Assembly (NCBI GenBank): GCA_022560555.1
Contig: JADFSZ010000100.1
Coordinates: forward strand, 1-6,514
DNA: 6,514 bases
Reading direction: 5' to 3'
Origin: PVC group bacterium
Lineage (GTDB): Bacteria; GCA-001730085; JADFSZ01
The notes beneath the pieces were generated by a model. It had not been told where the DNA came from. It saw only the letters and a list, made by a program, of their open reading frames with translations, and made no database searches. The stretch's first letter is position 1; the number at the start of each line of letters is the position of its first letter. The position numbers were made by a program, and so were the translations under genes. This document shows, in pieces, positions 1 to 6,346 of the stretch.

Positions 1-157
1 CTCATCCCTCAATATTGCCGTTTTAACTCCTGGCATCCTATTTGCGTGATTGAATATGTGCAAGCCAAACCCAGTTACTTAAGAGAAAGGGGTGGTCCTA
101 TGGCCCGTTCCAGCATAATCAAGATCTTAGCTTTATTTCCATCGACAGTCACGCATA

Positions 158-267: not shown

Positions 268-801
268 ATGATGTATCAAGAAATAGCCATGCAAATACGA
301 CGGTTCTGCTTTTCCTCTTTGTTGATATACGCGGTTGTCGTTTTTGGCCAACCCGGCCTTGGTTATGCCCAGCCAAATGATCCGACACTCTTTTTGACTC
401 ATCCTTATTCAGGAAAAACACATTCATTGGTCGCTATCGGCTATGGAAAAATTGCTCAAGATCGGGGGCGCTTGCCGACTCAAGAAAAGCTTATGGCAAA
501 AAGAGCGGCTATGCTGGATGCCTATCGCAAACTTTCCGGCGGCTTAAGAAGTATCTCTAGCCATATTCAGAACGGAAATACAGTTTTGGAACAATCCGGA
601 TTTATCAAAGGCGCAAAGATAATGCGATATAATATTTTGCAAAATAATTATTTTGAAGTCGAGTTGGCCGTTCCAATAACTTTTATGGATTCTGTTTCAC
701 CGGCTAAGATTGAAAAAATGGCCGTGGTTTATCCGAAACCTTTTAACCAAAACCAGGGCGAACCCATTGATCGCGATGAATGGGTTCACATAATGAAATA
801 A
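268..801 (+). CDS. Secreted single-module LPP20/FlgP-like protein (177 aa from the corrected start)
   Basis: The frame is open from 46. The in-frame ATG at 268 follows AAGGAG (255-260) with a 7-nt spacer and opens a signal peptide, MMYQEIAMQIRRFCFSSLLIYAVVVFGQPGLGYA|QP. The mature part aligns with the modules of the next gene (AIGYGK...LMAKRAAMLDAYRKL...FIKGAKI...FEVELAVPI). Stop TAA at 799-801. The CDS itself is secure; the family call rests on motifs only. Confidence 0.8.
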   Translation: MMYQEIAMQIRRFCFSSLLIYAVVVFGQPGLGYAQPNDPTLFLTHPYSGKTHSLVAIGYGKIAQDRGRLPTQEKLMAKRAAMLDAYRKLSGGLRSISSHIQNGNTVLEQSGFIKGAKIMRYNILQNNYFEVELAVPITFMDSVSPAKIEKMAVVYPKPFNQNQGEPIDRDEWVHIMK

Positions 802-829
802 TCCCGTGCCATGAAAAGGAGTTACACTA

Positions 830-2152
830 ATGAAAAAACTATTAACAACCCTTATCTTAGGAACCCTGATGTTGTTTTATGGAACCTCGTCCGCCTTGGC
901 AGTCAACGAGGCCCAAAACAAACTCCTGGCAAAGCGTGCTGCTCAAGCTGATGCCTATCGCAATTTAGCCGAAACCGTCATGGGGTTTAATATCGACGCC
1001 AATACCTATGTTCGTGATTTTGTTGCCGAGAGCGATCAAATCCAAACAGATTTAAATACCTTTCTCAAAGGGGCTGAGGTGACAAATGTTTTCTATCTTC
1101 CTGATGGGACATGTGAAGTGACCGTTTCTATGACCATCCAACAAATTGTAACCGAACTTCAAACGATCCATAGAGCCCGGTATGTTTACATCAAGGGACG
1201 CAGACGGTGGCGGCTGCGTGATTTTGATCAAATCGTTGTTCATCATCCGCAACTCACGTTTGTCACGGCTAAAGGATCCGGCGTTCCGAGAAGTTCCGCA
1301 CAAAACATAAACACCAACAAATCAAACGAATCCATCGTCACGGCCAATATTCCCGGATGGGAAGGGGTGACACCGCAGGGCCGGCTTATGGCCGAACGTG
1401 CGGCAAAAACCGATGCCGTTCGTAATTTAGCTGAAACGGTGTATGGTTTACGTATCACATCTCAAACCTACGTCAGAGATTTTGTTGCTGAAAGTGATCA
1501 GATCCAAACCATGCTTGATCAATATATTAAAAATGTTAAGCAAATATCTCCCTACCGGTATACTCCGGAAGGCATATGTGAGGTTGATGTCGAGGTCAGT
1601 GTTCAGGATGTGATCAAACAACTCAAGACTATACATCAAGACATCGTGCGTCGGGGATGGCGATGGAGAACCGTTGAACATCGTACCATCAACTTTGAAG
1701 AAATTATCGGCTATACTCCTATTAAGATTATCCGTGCTACAGGCTCCGGTGTCCCTCCCGAAAAATATCGGCAAGATCGTTCGCCGACATCCGCGGGATT
1801 AACAAGTTTCGCGCCTCCCACTCCCGCTTGGGCCACATCCACAATTCAGGCCAAAGGAACCGGAATCCAAGCTCAAGGAATCAGCCCGGCAGAAGCCTAC
1901 TTGAGTGCCGAGCGCGCCGCGAAAATCGACGCACTAAGAAACCTTTCGGAACAAATCTACGGCGTTCGGATCACTTCTCAGACAACCGTGAGAGATTTTG
2001 TCACTCAGTATGATGAAGTCTCAGCTAATGTCACCGCGTTTCTCCGAGGAGCCCGCGAAATCGAAACACGGGAACTGCCGGACGGAAGTATCGAAGTCGT
2101 CGTTGAATTACCGTTAAACGGATTATACCAAATATTAAAACCAAGAATCTAA
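830..2152 (+). CDS. Secreted protein with three tandem LPP20-like modules (440 aa)
   Basis: AAGGAG at 816-821, an 8-nt spacer, then ATG at 830. Signal peptide MKKLLTTLILGTLMLFYGTSSALA|VNE. The motif A-[KE]-R-A-A-x-x-D-A-x-R-N-L-[AS]-E-x-[VI]-x-G-x-x-I-x-[SA]-x-T-x-V-R-D-F-V occurs three times (aa 34-65, 188-219, 360-391). Each copy is followed by a [LP]-P-[DE]-G-x-x-E-V-x-V strand. Stop TAA at 2150-2152. Confidence 0.85.
   Translation: MKKLLTTLILGTLMLFYGTSSALAVNEAQNKLLAKRAAQADAYRNLAETVMGFNIDANTYVRDFVAESDQIQTDLNTFLKGAEVTNVFYLPDGTCEVTVSMTIQQIVTELQTIHRARYVYIKGRRRWRLRDFDQIVVHHPQLTFVTAKGSGVPRSSAQNINTNKSNESIVTANIPGWEGVTPQGRLMAERAAKTDAVRNLAETVYGLRITSQTYVRDFVAESDQIQTMLDQYIKNVKQISPYRYTPEGICEVDVEVSVQDVIKQLKTIHQDIVRRGWRWRTVEHRTINFEEIIGYTPIKIIRATGSGVPPEKYRQDRSPTSAGLTSFAPPTPAWATSTIQAKGTGIQAQGISPAEAYLSAERAAKIDALRNLSEQIYGVRITSQTTVRDFVTQYDEVSANVTAFLRGAREIETRELPDGSIEVVVELPLNGLYQILKPRI
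911..1171 (+). repeat. Intragenic protein-level repeat, LPP20-like module 1 (aa 28-114)
   Basis: AQNKLLAKRAAQADAYRNLAETVMGFNIDANTYVRDFVAESDQIQTDLNTFLKGAEV...DGTCEVTVSMTIQQIVTELQTIH aligns colinearly with modules 2 and 3. Confidence 0.75.
1373..1636 (+). repeat. Intragenic protein-level repeat, LPP20-like module 2 (aa 182-269)
   Basis: PQGRLMAERAAKTDAVRNLAETVYGLRITSQTYVRDFVAESDQIQTMLDQYIKNVKQ...EGICEVDVEVSVQDVIKQLKTIH. It shares an identical 14-aa block (YVRDFVAESDQIQT) with module 1. Confidence 0.75.
1886..2137 (+). repeat. Intragenic protein-level repeat, LPP20-like module 3 (aa 353-436)
   Basis: PAEAYLSAERAAKIDALRNLSEQIYGVRITSQTTVRDFVTQYDEVSANVTAFLRGAREIETRELPDGSIEVVVELPLNGLYQIL. This is the most divergent copy, and it lacks the Arg/Trp-rich linker that follows modules 1 and 2. 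Confidence 0.7.
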
Positions 2153-2183
2153 ATGCTATGTTAATCGCACATTGGAGAAAAAA

Positions 2184-3347
2184 ATGAACGTCTATCATAA
2201 AACACTGCCATCTATCCTACCTTTGTTTTTGGGGATGTTCCTTCTCGGAATCGATCCTGGGGCTGTATCCGCCCAGCCGGGTTTCCCCCCATCAAAAATC
2301 ATTGAAGCCGAGGGCCGTGCTGCCGCAAGCTCTATAACGGCTCGTGATGAAGCTCTCTCTCGCGCTCTCAGAAACGCTGTTGAACAAGGCGTCGGCGTCA
2401 TTATTGACTCTGTCAGTATGACAGAAAATTTTCGCTTGATTGAAGATAAAATTTATTCTGAGGTTAAGGGCTTTGTTGAGAACTATACCATCCTTTTTGA
2501 AAATCCAAATGATAACGGATTTTTTGTAATACGCCTTCAGGCTCAAGTCGCTTTAGGGATGCTCCAAAACCGTTTAGCGGCTTTGAATCTTTTAAGAGAG
2601 AAAAAGGGGAATCCACGAATAATGATTATCGCGAGTGAACTTATCGATGGTTTAGAGCAAGCCGGTGCCGTTGTCTCTACCGAGATAGAAAGTCTTTTTT
2701 TATCAAAGAATTTCCCGCTCGTAGATAAGTCACAGATGGAAATGATTAAACAACGTGATGCCAGCATGGCCTATGCCAACCCGCAAAAGGCCGTGGCTCT
2801 GGGACGCCGCTATGGAGCCGAGCTCGTTATTGTCGTGCAGGCCACGAGTGATCTTGTGGACACAAGTCAACCGTACGGGCAATCCGTTTTTTATTACGGA
2901 TCTCAGTGCTCTGCTAAAGCTATCAAAGTCGATACAGCTCAAATCGTGGCATCGGAATCCGTCACGATTGATCGTGTGGGAGGCGGCGGACGCATCCCTA
3001 CGGCAAAAAAATCCCTGGCTCAAGCAGGACAAAGGCTTGCGGGCACCCTTCTTTCTAAAATCATTGAAAGCTGGCGGAGTGAAGTCTACAACACGGTCCG
3101 AACACAATTGATTCTTTCTAATGCCAGCCTCGGACGCTCATTAAAACTTCAAAACGCCTTAGACGGACTTCCCGTCGTGGTAAATGTTTATGAAAAATCC
3201 CTCGTCAACGGCGTGTTAGAGTTGGATGTCGAGCTCAAGGGTGCGTCTACGGACGAACTCGCCATTCGCTTGCTTGAACTCTCGGAAATCTTGATCAACA
3301 TCACAGGTAAATCGGAAAATCGCATTGACGGACAATTTATCAACTAG
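2184..3347 (+). CDS. Secreted three-domain FlgT-like protein: LPP20/FlgT-N-like domain, CsgG/TolB-N-like alpha/beta domain, small C-terminal alpha/beta domain (387 aa from the corrected start)
   Basis: The ORF track starts at TTG 2172, but GGAG (2174-2177) sits 6 nt before ATG 2184. Signal peptide MNVYHKTLPSILPLFLGMFLLGIDPGAVSA|QP. N domain (aa ~37-135): IIEAEGRAAASSITARDEALSRALRNAVEQGVGVIIDS. Middle domain (aa ~143-300): PRIMIIASE...LSKNFPLVDKSQ...LGRRYGAELVIVVQATS...AKAIKVDTAQIVAS, the CsgG-fold pattern without long hairpin inserts. C domain: aa ~305-387. The size and three-part layout resemble Vibrio FlgT. The CDS is secure; the FlgT-like call has moderate support (about 0.45). Confidence 0.8.
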   Translation: MNVYHKTLPSILPLFLGMFLLGIDPGAVSAQPGFPPSKIIEAEGRAAASSITARDEALSRALRNAVEQGVGVIIDSVSMTENFRLIEDKIYSEVKGFVENYTILFENPNDNGFFVIRLQAQVALGMLQNRLAALNLLREKKGNPRIMIIASELIDGLEQAGAVVSTEIESLFLSKNFPLVDKSQMEMIKQRDASMAYANPQKAVALGRRYGAELVIVVQATSDLVDTSQPYGQSVFYYGSQCSAKAIKVDTAQIVASESVTIDRVGGGGRIPTAKKSLAQAGQRLAGTLLSKIIESWRSEVYNTVRTQLILSNASLGRSLKLQNALDGLPVVVNVYEKSLVNGVLELDVELKGASTDELAIRLLELSEILINITGKSENRIDGQFIN

Positions 3348-3371
3348 CAAATACGAACCGGCATTAAACCT

Positions 3372-4193
3372 ATGTTTCTAAAAAATTCATTACTACTCGG
3401 CTTAATTGCGTTTATGATCCTCGGAAGCTCTAGCCCTGTTTATGCCCTAAAAAAACACGTCAGTATTAACCCCATCAAAATCAGAAGAACCGTTGGAGGA
3501 GATGAGGTCACGAGGATTAGAGACTATTTATTTAAAATTATAGAAAAAACCTTCATCCTTAAAAAAACAAAATTTATTGTCAGCGATCATCCTCAAATTC
3601 TTGTTGATGTCTCGATCTCCCGATGCGATACCGGAACCCGTAGCAGTGTTCGACAAACACCTTATCATAAAGCTATGGGACTCTCTTCCACGGAAGCCAA
3701 CGCTATCATTGAAGCCTACGTTCAATTCTTTGACGCCAATACAAATGTCGTGATTTCGGCGGGAACTTTGGAGGGAAGAGCGTCTTCCAAAAGAGCCTCC
3801 GGACGGTTTAACGAAAAATGGGAAGGCACAGTGGATGAATTCCGAGGCAACACCCCTATCGGCTTAGCCTGCCAAATATTCACGGATAAGCTAATGAAGT
3901 ACGCCTACCGCATTTTAGATAAAGTTCTTTGGAAAGGAACCATCACAAAAATTGAAGGAACAGATCTTTATATCAGTTCTGGGTTTATGGACGGCGTAGG
4001 AATGGCCGATATGTTTTCAGTCTATAGAAAAGGACAATCGATAACAACTCAGCGTCTCCTCGGCGGCACCGCAAAGGACAGATTCATTGAAGTGTATCAA
4101 ATCGAAGAGGATTATGCTATTGCGAAACCCGCTCGCGGATCTGAAGAATTGGTTTTTTCCGTCGGGGATATCATTCAAGCTATGCCTAAATGA
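3372..4193 (+). CDS. Secreted divergent CsgG-fold protein with charged, non-amphipathic hairpin-equivalent segments, plus a C-terminal FlgT-C-like beta-domain (273 aa)
   Basis: Signal peptide MFLKNSLLLGLIAFMILGSSSPVYA|LKK. No clear SD lies upstream of ATG 3372, which is 24 nt after the previous stop. The protein aligns by eye with the next two genes: PQILVDVSISRCD vs AQIMITGAVSEFD; AIIEAYVQFFDANTNVVISAGTLEGRA vs AYLAVVIRIIDMTTMQVLDSQRVEGYA; FRGNTPIGLACQIFTDKL vs FRKTPIGKACQEAINQAV. The C-terminal WKGTITKIEGTDLYISSGFMDGVGMADMFSVYRKG matches GQGAIAAIDQYGIIINIGGESGVKTGDKFNVLKKG. The CDS is secure; the fold call has moderate support. Confidence 0.8.
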   Translation: MFLKNSLLLGLIAFMILGSSSPVYALKKHVSINPIKIRRTVGGDEVTRIRDYLFKIIEKTFILKKTKFIVSDHPQILVDVSISRCDTGTRSSVRQTPYHKAMGLSSTEANAIIEAYVQFFDANTNVVISAGTLEGRASSKRASGRFNEKWEGTVDEFRGNTPIGLACQIFTDKLMKYAYRILDKVLWKGTITKIEGTDLYISSGFMDGVGMADMFSVYRKGQSITTQRLLGGTAKDRFIEVYQIEEDYAIAKPARGSEELVFSVGDIIQAMPK

Positions 4194-4258
4194 TTCTCTT
4201 TTTAACTATATTCTCTTTGTAACTATATTTTCTTTTAACTACATCATCTTTAACCGTA
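4194..4258 (+). repeat. Four tandem imperfect direct repeats (17, 17, 16, 15 nt) filling the largest intergenic gap, immediately 5' of the SD of the first CsgG paralogue
   Basis: Unit 1 at 4194-4210 is TTCTCTTTTTAACTATA. Unit 2 at 4211-4227 is TTCTCTTTGTAACTATA, matching unit 1 at 16 of 17 positions. Unit 3 at 4228-4243 is TTTTCTTTTAACTACA. Unit 4 at 4244-4258 is TCATCTTTAACCGTA. The AAGGAG SD begins at 4258. TATATT (-10-like) recurs at the unit junctions, 4207-4212 and 4224-4229. Confidence 0.8.
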
Positions 4259-4270
4259 AGGAGATCGTTC

Positions 4271-5173
4271 ATGCTCGCAAGAAAAATTAATATCCTATTC
4301 ATCATTTTGTTCTTGCTCCTCTCGTCAACCGCTTGGGCCATAGGGCCGAAAAAAACGATTATGGTGGGTTCCATTGAAAATAAAGCGGGAGCGAGTTCCC
4401 AATTTGCAATCGGCAACGCTCTTGAAGACATGCTGACAGAATCTCTGCAAAAAACCGGTCAGTTCATCATCACCGAGCGTCCGCAACTGCAGGCGGGATT
4501 GGCCGAACAGGATTTCGCTCAAAGCGGACGGACATCCGTCGTTGGAAGACCGCAATTAGGAAAAATCACTAACGCGCAGATTATGATCACGGGAGCCGTC
4601 TCGGAATTCGATCCGAGCTCAAGCGGAAATCGAGCGGGACTCAATATCAAAGGGTTCGGAGCCGGTGTGAGCCAGGCAACGGCTTATTTGGCCGTCGTCA
4701 TTCGTATTATTGACATGACCACCATGCAGGTTCTTGATTCCCAGCGTGTAGAAGGATACGCCAAAGCCGGGGGGGCAAATTTTTCGTACCAAGGTGGAAA
4801 TATTGGTGGCAATATCGGCGGTTTTCGTAAAACGCCGATCGGCAAAGCCTGCCAAGAAGCCATCAACCAAGCCGTGGCCTACATCACCGATCGCCTGCAA
4901 AACGTTTTCGGACAGGGGGCTATTGCCGCTATTGACCAGTATGGTATTATAATCAACATTGGCGGCGAAAGCGGCGTCAAGACCGGAGATAAGTTTAATG
5001 TTTTGAAAAAAGGATCAGAAATTATTGATCCGACAACAGGTGTTTCTCTCGGAACACGCGAACAATGGGCCGGAACGATTGAGATTGTCTCAGTCGATCC
5101 AAAATTCGCGACAGCAAGATCCATCAGCGGAAATAATTTTGCCATCGGAGACTCGATTCAGCCAATACAGTAA
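4271..5173 (+). CDS. CsgG-family outer-membrane channel-like protein, paralogue 1, with a C-terminal beta-domain (300 aa); no lipobox
   Basis: AAGGAG at 4258-4263, a 7-nt spacer, then ATG at 4271. Signal peptide MLARKINILFIILFLLLSSTAWA|IGP. It aligns colinearly with remembered E. coli CsgG: KTIMVGSIENKAG vs KIFVSVYNIQDETG; FIITERPQLQAGLAEQ vs FIPLERQGLQNLLNER; NAQIMITGAVSEFD vs AANIMVEGSIIGYE; LAVVIRIIDMTTMQVLDS vs IAVNLRVVNVSTGEILSS. Two Gly-rich insert segments sit where the CsgG barrel hairpins lie. Stop TAA at 5171-5173. Confidence 0.85.
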   Translation: MLARKINILFIILFLLLSSTAWAIGPKKTIMVGSIENKAGASSQFAIGNALEDMLTESLQKTGQFIITERPQLQAGLAEQDFAQSGRTSVVGRPQLGKITNAQIMITGAVSEFDPSSSGNRAGLNIKGFGAGVSQATAYLAVVIRIIDMTTMQVLDSQRVEGYAKAGGANFSYQGGNIGGNIGGFRKTPIGKACQEAINQAVAYITDRLQNVFGQGAIAAIDQYGIIINIGGESGVKTGDKFNVLKKGSEIIDPTTGVSLGTREQWAGTIEIVSVDPKFATARSISGNNFAIGDSIQPIQ

Positions 5174-5227
5174 AAGATAGTTTCCAGTTTCCGGTTAATA
5201 AAAAACACATGAATATCGGAGGTTTTG

Positions 5228-6346
5228 ATGAAAATTTATCGTACTATGATCGGTCTATTCCTATTGACATTTTTAACAGTTTCTCTGCCTAATTTTGCCG
5301 AAGCGGGGTTGAGGAACATGCGTAAACGAACGTATCGCCAATCCTCAAAAATCGATGCCAGGCGTTCGGATCATATGGACGCCGACGGTGTTGTTGACTA
5401 CAATGACAATAAGAAAAGACGCAAAAAAAGAAAATCAAAGAAGTCAGAAGAGATTGTTTTACCTCCTCCTCAAGGGCCTAAAAAAGTCATTATGGTTGGA
5501 AAGATTGAAAACAAAGCCGGAGGCGGGGCTCAAATCGCTATCGGAGATCCTTTAGAAGAAATGATGACTGAAGCTCTCATCAAAAGCAACCGTTTCATCA
5601 TTGCTGAGAGACCCGAAATGCTTGCAGGATTACAAGAGCAGGATTTTGCCCAAAGCGGTCGTACATCCGCCGTCGGGGGGGCTCAAATCGGAAAAATCAC
5701 CAACGCCCAAATCATGGTCACAGGTGCCATCACAGAATTTGACGCAAGTTCCGGAGGCGGACAACAGGCTTTTAGTTACGGTGGATTTGGCATTGGTTTT
5801 AATCAAGCGCAGGCGCATGTTGCCGTAACAATTCGGCTCGTGGATCTGACCACGATGCAGGTGATTGATTCTCAACGTGTCGAAGGAAAAGCTAAAGCCG
5901 GCGGCGCAACGTTTTCCTATCAAGACAGCGGCGGCTGGGGCGGATCACTCGGAGGCTTCCGTAAAACACCTATCGGAAAGGCCTCCCAAGATGCCATCAA
6001 CAAAGCTCTGGCTTATATCATTCAACGCATGGACAGCATTCCCTGGCAAGGCGCTATTGCCGTTATTGACCAATATGGAATCGTGATAAACAATGGAGGA
6101 GAAAACGGTATCAAAATCGGAGACCACTTTGTGGTATTCCAACCTGGGCCCGATATCATCGATCCCTCAACAGGTGTCTCTCTTGGCAGCCGAAAAAAAA
6201 GGGTTGGTCTGCTTGAAATTATTTCCGTGGATGCCAAATTCTCGACAGCCAAGGCTCTCGAAGGGAACGATTTCAATGTGGGCTATATTATAGAGTACAT
6301 GCCACCCCCACCACCACCTGTCCCTCAACCGCAACCTGTGAGCTGA
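5228..6346 (+). CDS. CsgG-family outer-membrane channel-like protein, paralogue 2, with an N-terminal charged extension, a C-terminal beta-domain and a polyproline tail (372 aa from the corrected start); no lipobox
   Basis: The ORF track starts at TTG 5225, but GGAGG (5218-5222) is 5 nt from ATG 5228 and only 2 nt from the TTG. Signal peptide MKIYRTMIGLFLLTFLTVSLPNFAEA|GL. From GPKK onward it is colinear with paralogue 1; 63 of the first 90 aligned residues are identical by manual count. Stop TGA at 6344-6346. Confidence 0.85.
   Translation: MKIYRTMIGLFLLTFLTVSLPNFAEAGLRNMRKRTYRQSSKIDARRSDHMDADGVVDYNDNKKRRKKRKSKKSEEIVLPPPQGPKKVIMVGKIENKAGGGAQIAIGDPLEEMMTEALIKSNRFIIAERPEMLAGLQEQDFAQSGRTSAVGGAQIGKITNAQIMVTGAITEFDASSGGGQQAFSYGGFGIGFNQAQAHVAVTIRLVDLTTMQVIDSQRVEGKAKAGGATFSYQDSGGWGGSLGGFRKTPIGKASQDAINKALAYIIQRMDSIPWQGAIAVIDQYGIVINNGGENGIKIGDHFVVFQPGPDIIDPSTGVSLGSRKKRVGLLEIISVDAKFSTAKALEGNDFNVGYIIEYMPPPPPPVPQPQPVS

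Follow-up and report, generated by a model that had tools for sequence, protein, structure and literature searches.

What does a bacterium build from six consecutive genes whose products are all exported, and which bring together modules known from flagellar outer-membrane rings and a fold known from the curli secretion channel? The question is raised by contig JADFSZ010000100.1 of an uncultured PVC group bacterium (GenBank assembly GCA_022560555.1), whose whole stretch of 6,514 nucleotides is called the window here. Six open reading frames (ORFs), g1 to g6, lie on its + strand and span positions 268-6346 (ORF listing). Is their product a secretion pore, a scaffold or a displaced part of a flagellar motor? 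We give an even chance to the reading that the operon encodes a sigma-54-dependent, non-flagellar outer-membrane complex in which a CsgG-type pore is combined with FlgT/FlgP-like periplasmic rings. This reading builds on what was observed of gene arrangement and export signals, on the relationships in family and fold, and on the synteny, the sigma-54 motif and the lack of a flagellar or curli context. The features of the window are:

31-45, + strand: sigma-54 (-24/-12) promoter-like motif TGGCATcctatTTGC, about 220 nucleotides upstream of g1
268-801, + strand: g1, 177 amino acids, exported, one divergent LPP20/FlgP-type (SHS2) module with a shortened hairpin region
830-2152, + strand: g2, 440 amino acids, exported, three tandem LPP20/FlgP-type modules (Pfam LPP20)
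2184-3347, + strand: g3, 387 amino acids, exported, FlgT-like, three domains (AF2/Foldseek, Pfam FlgT_N)
3372-4193, + strand: g4, 273 amino acids, exported, degenerate paralogue of g5 and g6 that retains a remnant of the CsgG fold and ends in a FlgT_C-like beta-domain (hhalign)
4271-5173, + strand: g5, 300 amino acids, exported, non-lipidated, CsgG family with a C-terminal FlgT_C-like beta-domain (Pfam, Foldseek)
5228-6346, + strand: g6, 372 amino acids, exported, non-lipidated, CsgG family with a FlgT_C-like domain (Pfam)

With the supported starts, the intergenic gaps from g1 to g6 measure 28, 31, 24, 77 and 54 nucleotides. A Shine-Dalgarno sequence (AAGGAG or GGAG, 5-8 nucleotides on the 5' side) backs the starts at 268, 830, 2184, 4271 and 5228, and no clear one was found for the g4 start at 3372. 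A longer version of the first ORF (46-801) was rejected: its start would directly follow the promoter motif, and the Shine-Dalgarno evidence favours 268. By inspection, each of the six N-termini has a basic n-region followed by a hydrophobic core, and small residues occupy positions -3 and -1, in line with the original reading of six exported + strand genes separated by 24-77 nucleotides; cleavage in g1 to g6 is predicted at GYA/Q, ALA/V, VSA/Q, VYA/L, AWA/I and AEA/G. None of the six signal peptides contains a lipobox cysteine on inspection, so that all six products are expected to reside in the envelope as soluble or beta-barrel proteins and not as lipoproteins. An Rfam scan of the window returned no matches, and no convincing terminator was found 3' of g6.

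Family and fold relationships of the six proteins

Which known proteins do these products resemble? The clearest assignments are those of g5 and g6, which match Pfam CsgG (PF03783, cut-off 20.8 bits) with 115.6 bits (E 2.6e-33, amino acids 27-210) and 112.7 bits (E 2e-32, amino acids 88-274), respectively, both hairpin segments being included in the match. A sequence search of the PDB with g5 also finds CsgG (E 4e-6), and some sources label the homologues ‘curli biogenesis system outer membrane secretion channel CsgG’. In curli secretion, CsgG assembles as a nonamer into a diffusion pore, and each protomer contributes two transmembrane beta-hairpins to a 36-stranded barrel. Are such hairpins present in the window proteins? 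The AlphaFold2 (AF2) model of g5, with a predicted local distance difference test (pLDDT) score of 73, has two long beta-hairpins (104-148 and 153-182) at the positions of TM1 and TM2 of CsgG, and in both g5 and g6 these segments are Gly/Ala-rich with few charges. A Foldseek search with this model matches CsgG at E 4e-11 with 21-23% identity and, ahead of it, the M and C domains of FlgT (E 4e-14, TMq 0.59). The FlgT likeness reappears in the Pfam search, where FlgT_C is matched by g4 (E 0.0098), by g5 (E 3.8e-9, amino acids 226-289) and by g6 (E 1.8e-3, amino acids 285-344); the cut-off is passed in g5 only (37.3 bits against 27), and the three C-terminal domains align with one another. This FlgT_C-like domain also has a weak match (E 0.007) to TsaP, which associates with the secretin of type IV pili. 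Pfam LpoB is matched weakly by g6 (E 1e-5) and g5 (E 1.7e-3), and Pfam FlgO is matched by neither at E<=1. A feature shared by ‘g6-type’ homologues is a Lys/Arg-rich, probably disordered linker of about 60 amino acids after the signal peptide (window 5303-5480 in g6), which might stand in for the missing lipid anchor by binding the membrane or peptidoglycan. At its other end, g6 finishes in a Pro-rich tail, PPPPPPVPQPQP (window 6305-6346).

And what is g4? The protein itself has no match to Pfam CsgG. Profile comparison with hhalign places it with the g5 family (probability 99.2%, E 1e-19), and its orthologue in the related locus L056 passes the Pfam CsgG cut-off (25.7 against 20.8 bits). About 32 conserved residues are missing from g4, including the EQDFAQSGRT segment, and its hairpin-2 region is 39% charged compared with 14-21% in g5 and g6. 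The window and L056 (2957-3787) versions of g4 share 40% identity, against 71-74% for g2 and g3 of the same pair. Taken together, the low identity, the lost residues and the charged hairpin indicate a fast-evolving paralogue that probably does not insert into the membrane. Orthologues were found only in L056, in L060 and as a truncated copy in L055, and a homologue search with g4 returned a single near-identical protein.

The third protein, g3, consists of an SHS2/FlgT_N-like N domain (amino acids ~37-124), a middle domain of the TolB-N/CsgG/LpoB type (~131-302) and an alpha/beta C domain (~304-385). Its AF2 model (pLDDT 74.7) finds FlgT as the top match in the PDB (8z5n and 3w1e, E 1e-11 and 1e-10, over ~395 columns), followed at the middle domain by LpoB, GNA1162, CsgG, PelC and LptE. 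The TM-scores with FlgT are low (0.32-0.36) because the orientations of the domains differ. As modelled, then, g3 has the three-domain N/M/C architecture of FlgT, with an uncertain correspondence of the C domains. Sequence profiles give a fainter signal: the N domain matches Pfam FlgT_N at E 9e-5 (23.3 bits, under the cut-off of 28.8), and FlgT_M and FlgT_C are undetected in g3 by Pfam. The g3 family profile also matches a chain of Campylobacter jejuni FlgP (9hmf_C) at E 0.006.

The FlgP side is most evident in g2, in which Pfam LPP20 (PF02169) is found in three stretches (E 4e-23, 82.1 bits against a cut-off of 25.9), corresponding to modules at about amino acids 26-105, 180-262 and 336-430. 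Is g1 a member of the same group? Pfam LPP20 is matched by g1 at E 0.28 only and is undetected in 13 of 13 members of its family, none of which reaches E 0.01, so profile-profile comparison was needed; with hhalign, the g1 and g2 families align at a probability of 98.4% (E 1e-14), and the insert of g1 is nine residues shorter than that of g2. The LPP20/FlgP-type lipoprotein anchor was not found in g1 or g2, both of which have type I signal peptides without a lipobox. FlgP has an insert that separates the SHS2 helix from the strand after it; this insert is the hairpin on which ring formation by FlgP depends, and across the family its presence goes together with the ability to form rings (PMC12222027). 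In g2 the modules have an insert as long as that of FlgP, and in the alignment of the g2 family an invariant TYVRDF lies within it, between helix and next strand, in modules 1 and 2. The alignment of g3 with C. jejuni FlgP runs through the insert segment with a gap of one residue only, and in the monomer model of g3 this segment (76-94) has low confidence. An insert matching the FlgP ring hairpin in length is thus highly conserved in the g2 modules and g3, as judged from alignments, the hairpin itself being a prediction. Profile and fold searches (Pfam, AF2 and Foldseek) consequently bear out the LPP20, FlgT and CsgG relationships first proposed by manual alignment, and with them the count of five LPP20-type modules, four CsgG/TolB-N-type modules and three C-terminal beta-domains.

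Related loci, their context and their control

Is this operon found elsewhere? Near-identical DNA (97-99%) is present in GCA_022561295.1 (‘PVC group bacterium’) and in an ENA scaffold, both of which stop short of the region upstream of g2; searches for the exact sequences of g5 and g2 had no match. The g3 family comprises 668 cluster representatives (50% identity) at E<=1e-30, and its members carry names such as Auribacterota, Omnitrophota, ‘Chlamydiae’ and the like. An initial g3 profile proved too divergent to locate loci; a genome scan yielded 50, the ORFs of which were searched with the six window proteins. The order g1-like, g2-like, g3-like and one or two CsgG/FlgT_C genes is seen at about 25 loci in metagenome-assembled genomes (MAGs) of PVC type, Auribacterota and Omnitrophota included, and the synteny of g1 with g2 holds for at least 15 loci. 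Omnitrophota-type loci show a reduced form made of g3, a CsgG-like gene and a FecR+LPP20 protein on the opposite strand, Desulfobacterota-type loci have looser, rearranged versions, and Verrucomicrobiota keep only g3. Another 42 metagenome loci, found with g2, contain the same families in shuffled orders. The exact six-gene layout, like g4, is restricted to the closest relatives, so that the recurring unit is g1-g2-g3 with one or two CsgG-like genes and not the full set of six. A stoichiometric pairing of three LPP20-type with three CsgG-fold genes, also suggested at first, has to be abandoned for the same reason, as gene numbers differ between relatives.

Do the relatives sit among flagellar or curli genes? 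The annotated flanks vary by genome (glycosyltransferases, radical-SAM enzymes, regulators, transporters) and contain no flagellar genes, no curlin, CsgE or CsgF, and no pilus or secretin genes that could be seen; only one distant g3 relative departs from this, having a FapA-family gene as its neighbour. In the window, csgA, csgB, csgE and csgF are likewise missing from the Pfam matches. The flagellar and csg content of the hosts was judged from published MAG analyses. Three loci (L011, L014 and L024) belong to Candidatus (Ca.) Tritonobacter lacicola, Ca. Theseobacter exili and Ca. Tantalella remota; the MAGs of the former two (PMC9324843) and of the latter (PMC8542988) are reported to be devoid of flagella or motility genes. 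At 88-93% completeness of these MAGs, the evidence for flagellar absence is strong without being absolute. Ca. Auribacter fodinae (L022) has both flagella and the cluster. The usual partners are therefore absent from the window and, the FapA-family gene apart, from the annotated flanks, as had been stated for the window alone, and the placement inside a flagellar regulon that had been raised as a caveat finds no counterpart in these flanks. The literature searched agrees with the view that this module combination is not a described system: no paper joins CsgG with LPP20 or FlgT, and among the top results no link was found between Omnitrophota or Auribacterota and CsgG or curli.

How is the operon switched on? 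The motif at window positions 31-45 reads TGGCAT-N5-TTGC and is of the sigma-54 -24/-12 type. A strict form of it, TGG[CT]A[CT]-N5-TTGC, was searched within 450 nucleotides upstream of the g1-like gene and found in 9 of 21 non-redundant related loci, where ~0.1 would be expected by chance; in total it has 16 matches in the 754 kb of loci, both strands included. The positions are 7302 in L001, 7385 in L002, 7245 in L003, 7243 in L011, 7295 in L012, 7488 in L015, 7291 in L017, 6498 in L021 and 1824 in L028. No metagenome contig matched an exact 32-nucleotide pattern spanning the promoter. Members of one family of GAF-domain sigma-54 activators are encoded in 10 related loci; the gene in L001 sits on the upstream side of the operon and is read from the other strand. 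In view of these results the original statement that there is no regulator is not wholly accurate: relatives keep the motif on the 5' side of the operon, often with a gene for a sigma-54 activator beside it. Auribacterota-type loci have a recurring set of neighbours, namely the GAF and sigma-54 activator, a DUF3307 protein, a FecR+LPP20 fusion and a CHASE2 and guanylate cyclase protein (L001: 5558-7105, - strand; 13513-14250, - strand; 14251-15573, - strand; 15700-17595, + strand; equivalents in L005, L012, L014, L016 and L028). By inference, this arrangement suggests a circuit in the relatives that would lead from the cyclase through a cyclic nucleotide and the GAF activator to the sigma-54 promoter.

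Small proteins are a further addition in the relatives. Most have one to three tiny lipoproteins (41-79 amino acids, ending in ...VVE/K/R) directly upstream of the g3-like gene, even in Verrucomicrobiota, where g3 is otherwise alone (examples: L021 8893-9018, L002 9474-10014, L003 9287-10014, L030 9717-9854, L035 333-470). In the shortest of them the mature peptide has ~20 amino acids, and some copies carry a CTYHEHYY motif. A subset of relatives encodes another lipoprotein, of 63-69 amino acids and ending in NPYGR, after the last CsgG-like gene (L002 13179-13382, L003 12163-12363, L010 2420-2611, L017 13149-13343, L019 4005-4205); none follows g6 in the window or in L055. In six loci the first gene past the promoter encodes a secreted, low-complexity protein of 94-132 amino acids rich in Tyr, Arg and Pro (L001 7352-7636, L012 7327-7644, L015 7492-7884, L020 7582-7932, L021 6544-6942, L028 1870-2223), and four of the six end in EPVVIVEEN..WW or a close variant. 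The small lipoproteins and the Tyr-rich peptides match no Pfam family. No gene for any of these small proteins, be it either kind of lipoprotein or the Tyr-rich peptide, was found in the window, L055 or L056, and the window leader (46-267, 220 nucleotides) has no ORF of the Tyr-rich type. What could these small proteins be for? They are candidates for lipid anchors provided in trans or for cargo, and the Tyr-rich secreted peptide is a candidate cargo of the CsgG-like pore. The operon had been described as self-contained; relatives add to it the FecR+LPP20 protein, DUF3307, the CHASE2 cyclase, the tiny lipoproteins and the Tyr-rich peptides.

A proposed ringed pore and the competing explanations

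How would the parts work together? For oligomerisation, membrane insertion, ring architecture and cargo we infer the following sequence of events. After Sec export, g5 and/or g6, as members of the CsgG/HfaB family, would oligomerise, and the two beta-hairpins of each protomer would form an outer-membrane barrel under which their FlgT_C-like domains would make a periplasmic collar. Around this pore g3, g1 and g2, the latter two with four FlgP-type modules in total, may assemble into concentric periplasmic rings, by analogy with FlgT, FlgP and FlgO around the L/P rings of Vibrio and with FlgP in the basal disk of Campylobacter. The Vibrio rings of FlgT (C26), FlgP and FlgO (both C58) are concentric and fastened to the outer membrane (bioRxiv 10.64898/2025.12.02.691832). 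The degenerate paralogue g4 would act as a periplasmic adaptor or cap, probably without membrane insertion. Small unfolded polypeptides would leave through the pore by diffusion, with no energy source, the candidate cargo in relatives being the Tyr-rich secreted peptides and the tiny lipoproteins of the same operon.

Several observations weigh against a ringed pore. The best fold match of g5 is to FlgT M+C, which forms rings but no pore, and the monomer models of g3 and g5 are only moderate. Under the NCBIfam CsgG equivalog PRK15184, g5 and g6 score 26.2 and 21.7 bits against a cut-off of 505. Both have signal peptides without a Cys and so lack the N-terminal lipid anchor of CsgG; some of their homologues in relatives carry lipoboxes. 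The loop corresponding to the CsgG constriction is ~6 residues shorter, and Tyr51, Asn55 and Phe56 of CsgG are not clearly conserved. The family usually has a Trp or Phe preceded by a polar residue here; g5 has SSQF, and g6, with an Ile, departs from the pattern. Neither a cargo nor a CsgE/F-like partner is encoded in the window. Finally, the g3 homologues of Verrucomicrobiota have no detectable CsgG-like or LPP20 neighbours, from which it follows that g3 can function without a pore.

Could the complex then be a scaffold with no pore at all? This is the main rival, and we consider it doubtful yet a serious contender. The proteins would form a membrane-attached disk, similar to the H-ring or basal disk, which stiffens or tethers the envelope or surrounds a type IV pilus or Tad secretin, and the CsgG-like proteins would behave like FlgO or like the M and C domains of FlgT. 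The order of the fold matches of g5, the weak TsaP match, the missing cargo gene and the Verrucomicrobiota g3 with a tiny lipoprotein as its only partner all fit such a scaffold, as does the Vibrio H-ring, which anchors to the membrane without a pore (bioRxiv 10.64898/2025.12.02.691832). A scaffold accounts less well for the strong CsgG match of g5 and g6 (113-116 bits) across both hairpin segments and for the lack of any FlgO match; moreover, as none of the six proteins is lipidated, without a barrel no membrane anchor is evident in the window, and the pilus or secretin that it might surround was not seen in the annotated flanks.

The remaining explanations are all improbable, to different degrees. 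True curli-type (type VIII) amyloid secretion, with CsgA/B/E/F-like partners located elsewhere or too divergent to be recognised, would fit the Pfam membership of g5 and g6, the labels given to their homologues and the relatives' Tyr-rich secreted peptides, which could be amyloid-like; against it stand the equivalog scores, the lack of curlin, CsgE and CsgF families in every annotated flank, the unlipidated g5 and g6, and an extra FlgT_C domain with conserved FlgT/FlgP-like partners, both foreign to curli systems, so that we regard it as quite unlikely. Slightly less credit still is given to the idea that the operon groups periplasmic proteins that act separately and never assemble together, such as LpoB-like regulators acting on peptidoglycan synthases and antigens of the LPP20 kind. 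The TolB-N fold is indeed used by many unrelated periplasmic proteins, and LpoB is matched weakly; but CsgG is matched with far higher scores than LpoB, the three module types stay linked across phyla despite the shuffling of gene order, and the genes share a sigma-54 promoter. The least probable option is a flagellar motor accessory, that is, a divergent H-ring or basal disk made of FlgT, FlgP and FlgO equivalents encoded away from the other flagellar genes. The module set does mirror these three proteins, polar flagellates typically have their flagellar genes under sigma-54, the flagellated Ca. Auribacter fodinae carries the cluster, and one FapA-family gene adjoins a distant g3 relative. 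However, that gene is the only one of its kind in the annotated flanks, the cluster is present in the three MAGs reported without flagellar or motility genes, and g3 remains under the Pfam cut-off for FlgT_N with FlgT_M and FlgT_C undetected.

If the ringed pore is accepted, how far can its interpretation be taken? Tentatively, and with more doubt than for the complex itself, it could be a widespread undescribed non-flagellar machine, a CsgG-type pore with FlgT/FlgP-like rings that is a free-standing relative, and possibly the source, of the H-ring and basal-disk proteins, that is switched in relatives by a cyclic nucleotide, GAF activator and sigma-54, and that exports or displays Tyr-rich peptides or lipopeptides. 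FlgT, FlgP and FlgO are treated as flagellar add-ons of unclear origin; the presence of the cluster in non-flagellated lineages together with a CsgG-family pore would, if true, make it a candidate ancestral system from which they were recruited. It would also give CsgG/HfaB-family channels a second architecture. Whatever its role, the complex is common in PVC, Omnitrophota and Desulfobacterota bacteria of anoxic environments. CsgG-type pores are useful as nanopores, and a variant with a periplasmic collar may be of interest.

Known systems and neighbouring genes

Where does the operon stand among characterised systems? With the Vibrio H-ring and the Campylobacter FlgP disk it shares an SHS2/LPP20 module with an insert, a three-domain FlgT-like protein and a TolB-N/CsgG-type module, and in both cases exported components work on the periplasmic side of the outer membrane, as predicted for the window. 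In contrast to the flagellar rings, the window operon has no flagellar context, some of its hosts have no flagella, none of its components is lipidated (FlgP and FlgO are lipoproteins), and LPP20 modules are triplicated in one chain, g2. The TolB-N-type partner is not FlgO but a member of Pfam CsgG that has a FlgT_C domain and hairpins predicted to enter the membrane, and g3 differs from FlgT in its C domain, which is alpha/beta in the model and undetected by Pfam FlgT_C. As to E. coli CsgG (PDB 4uv3, 6l7a), g5 and g6 resemble it in family (E ~1e-33), in structural alignment (21-23% identity) and in predicted hairpins at the positions of TM1 and TM2. They differ in the missing lipid anchor and CsgA/B/E/F partners, scores far under the equivalog cut-off, the shorter constriction loop, the extra C-terminal FlgT_C-like domain and the presence of two to three tandem paralogues.

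CsgG/HfaB-family proteins also act outside curli, as in A. baumannii and with Caulobacter HfaB, and are widespread and largely uncharacterised. The non-curli clusters of this family (a CsgG-like protein with DUF4810 and GNA1162-like proteins in A. baumannii and Neisseria, and HfaABD in Caulobacter) similarly combine a CsgG-family protein with small partners, periplasmic proteins or lipoproteins, whose fold is TolB-N-like; their function is largely unknown, with links to surface polymers. The window has LPP20/FlgP-like and FlgT-like partners instead, and its proteins match neither GNA1162-like (PF05643) at E<=1 nor DUF4810 or HfaA/D in Pfam. A link between the two kinds of cluster is provided by a distant locus in a Pseudomonadota MAG (L037), the only one with such a gene, in which a GNA1162-like (PF05643) lipoprotein gene (11192-11824) lies between the g3-like and the CsgG-like gene, connecting the present cluster with the CsgG-like/DUF4810/GNA1162 clusters of Neisseria and Acinetobacter. 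PelC, which is part of the PelBC exopolysaccharide exporter, has a TolB-N-type fold like those of the g3 middle domain and g5. This dodecameric lipoprotein makes a ring in the periplasm that guides the substrate into an outer-membrane pore, with the PelB barrel as its partner. Unlike the window proteins, PelC is lipidated and PelB-dependent; there is no relationship at the sequence level, and no pel genes are present here. Glycosyltransferase genes flank the cluster in Ca. Auribacter.

What lies beyond the end of the window? In L055, a 99% identical contig, a 143-amino-acid exported protein (2859-3290) and a protein of more than 579 amino acids on the opposite strand (3350-5091) are encoded downstream of g6; neither belongs to a Pfam family. 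Desulfobacterota-type loci place a TPR and SLH-like lipoprotein between the LPP20-like and g3-like genes, and in some metagenome versions TPR repeats are fused to the CsgG-like protein (for both variations, L042 8775-9947, L037 8688-9932 and L068 795-1796).

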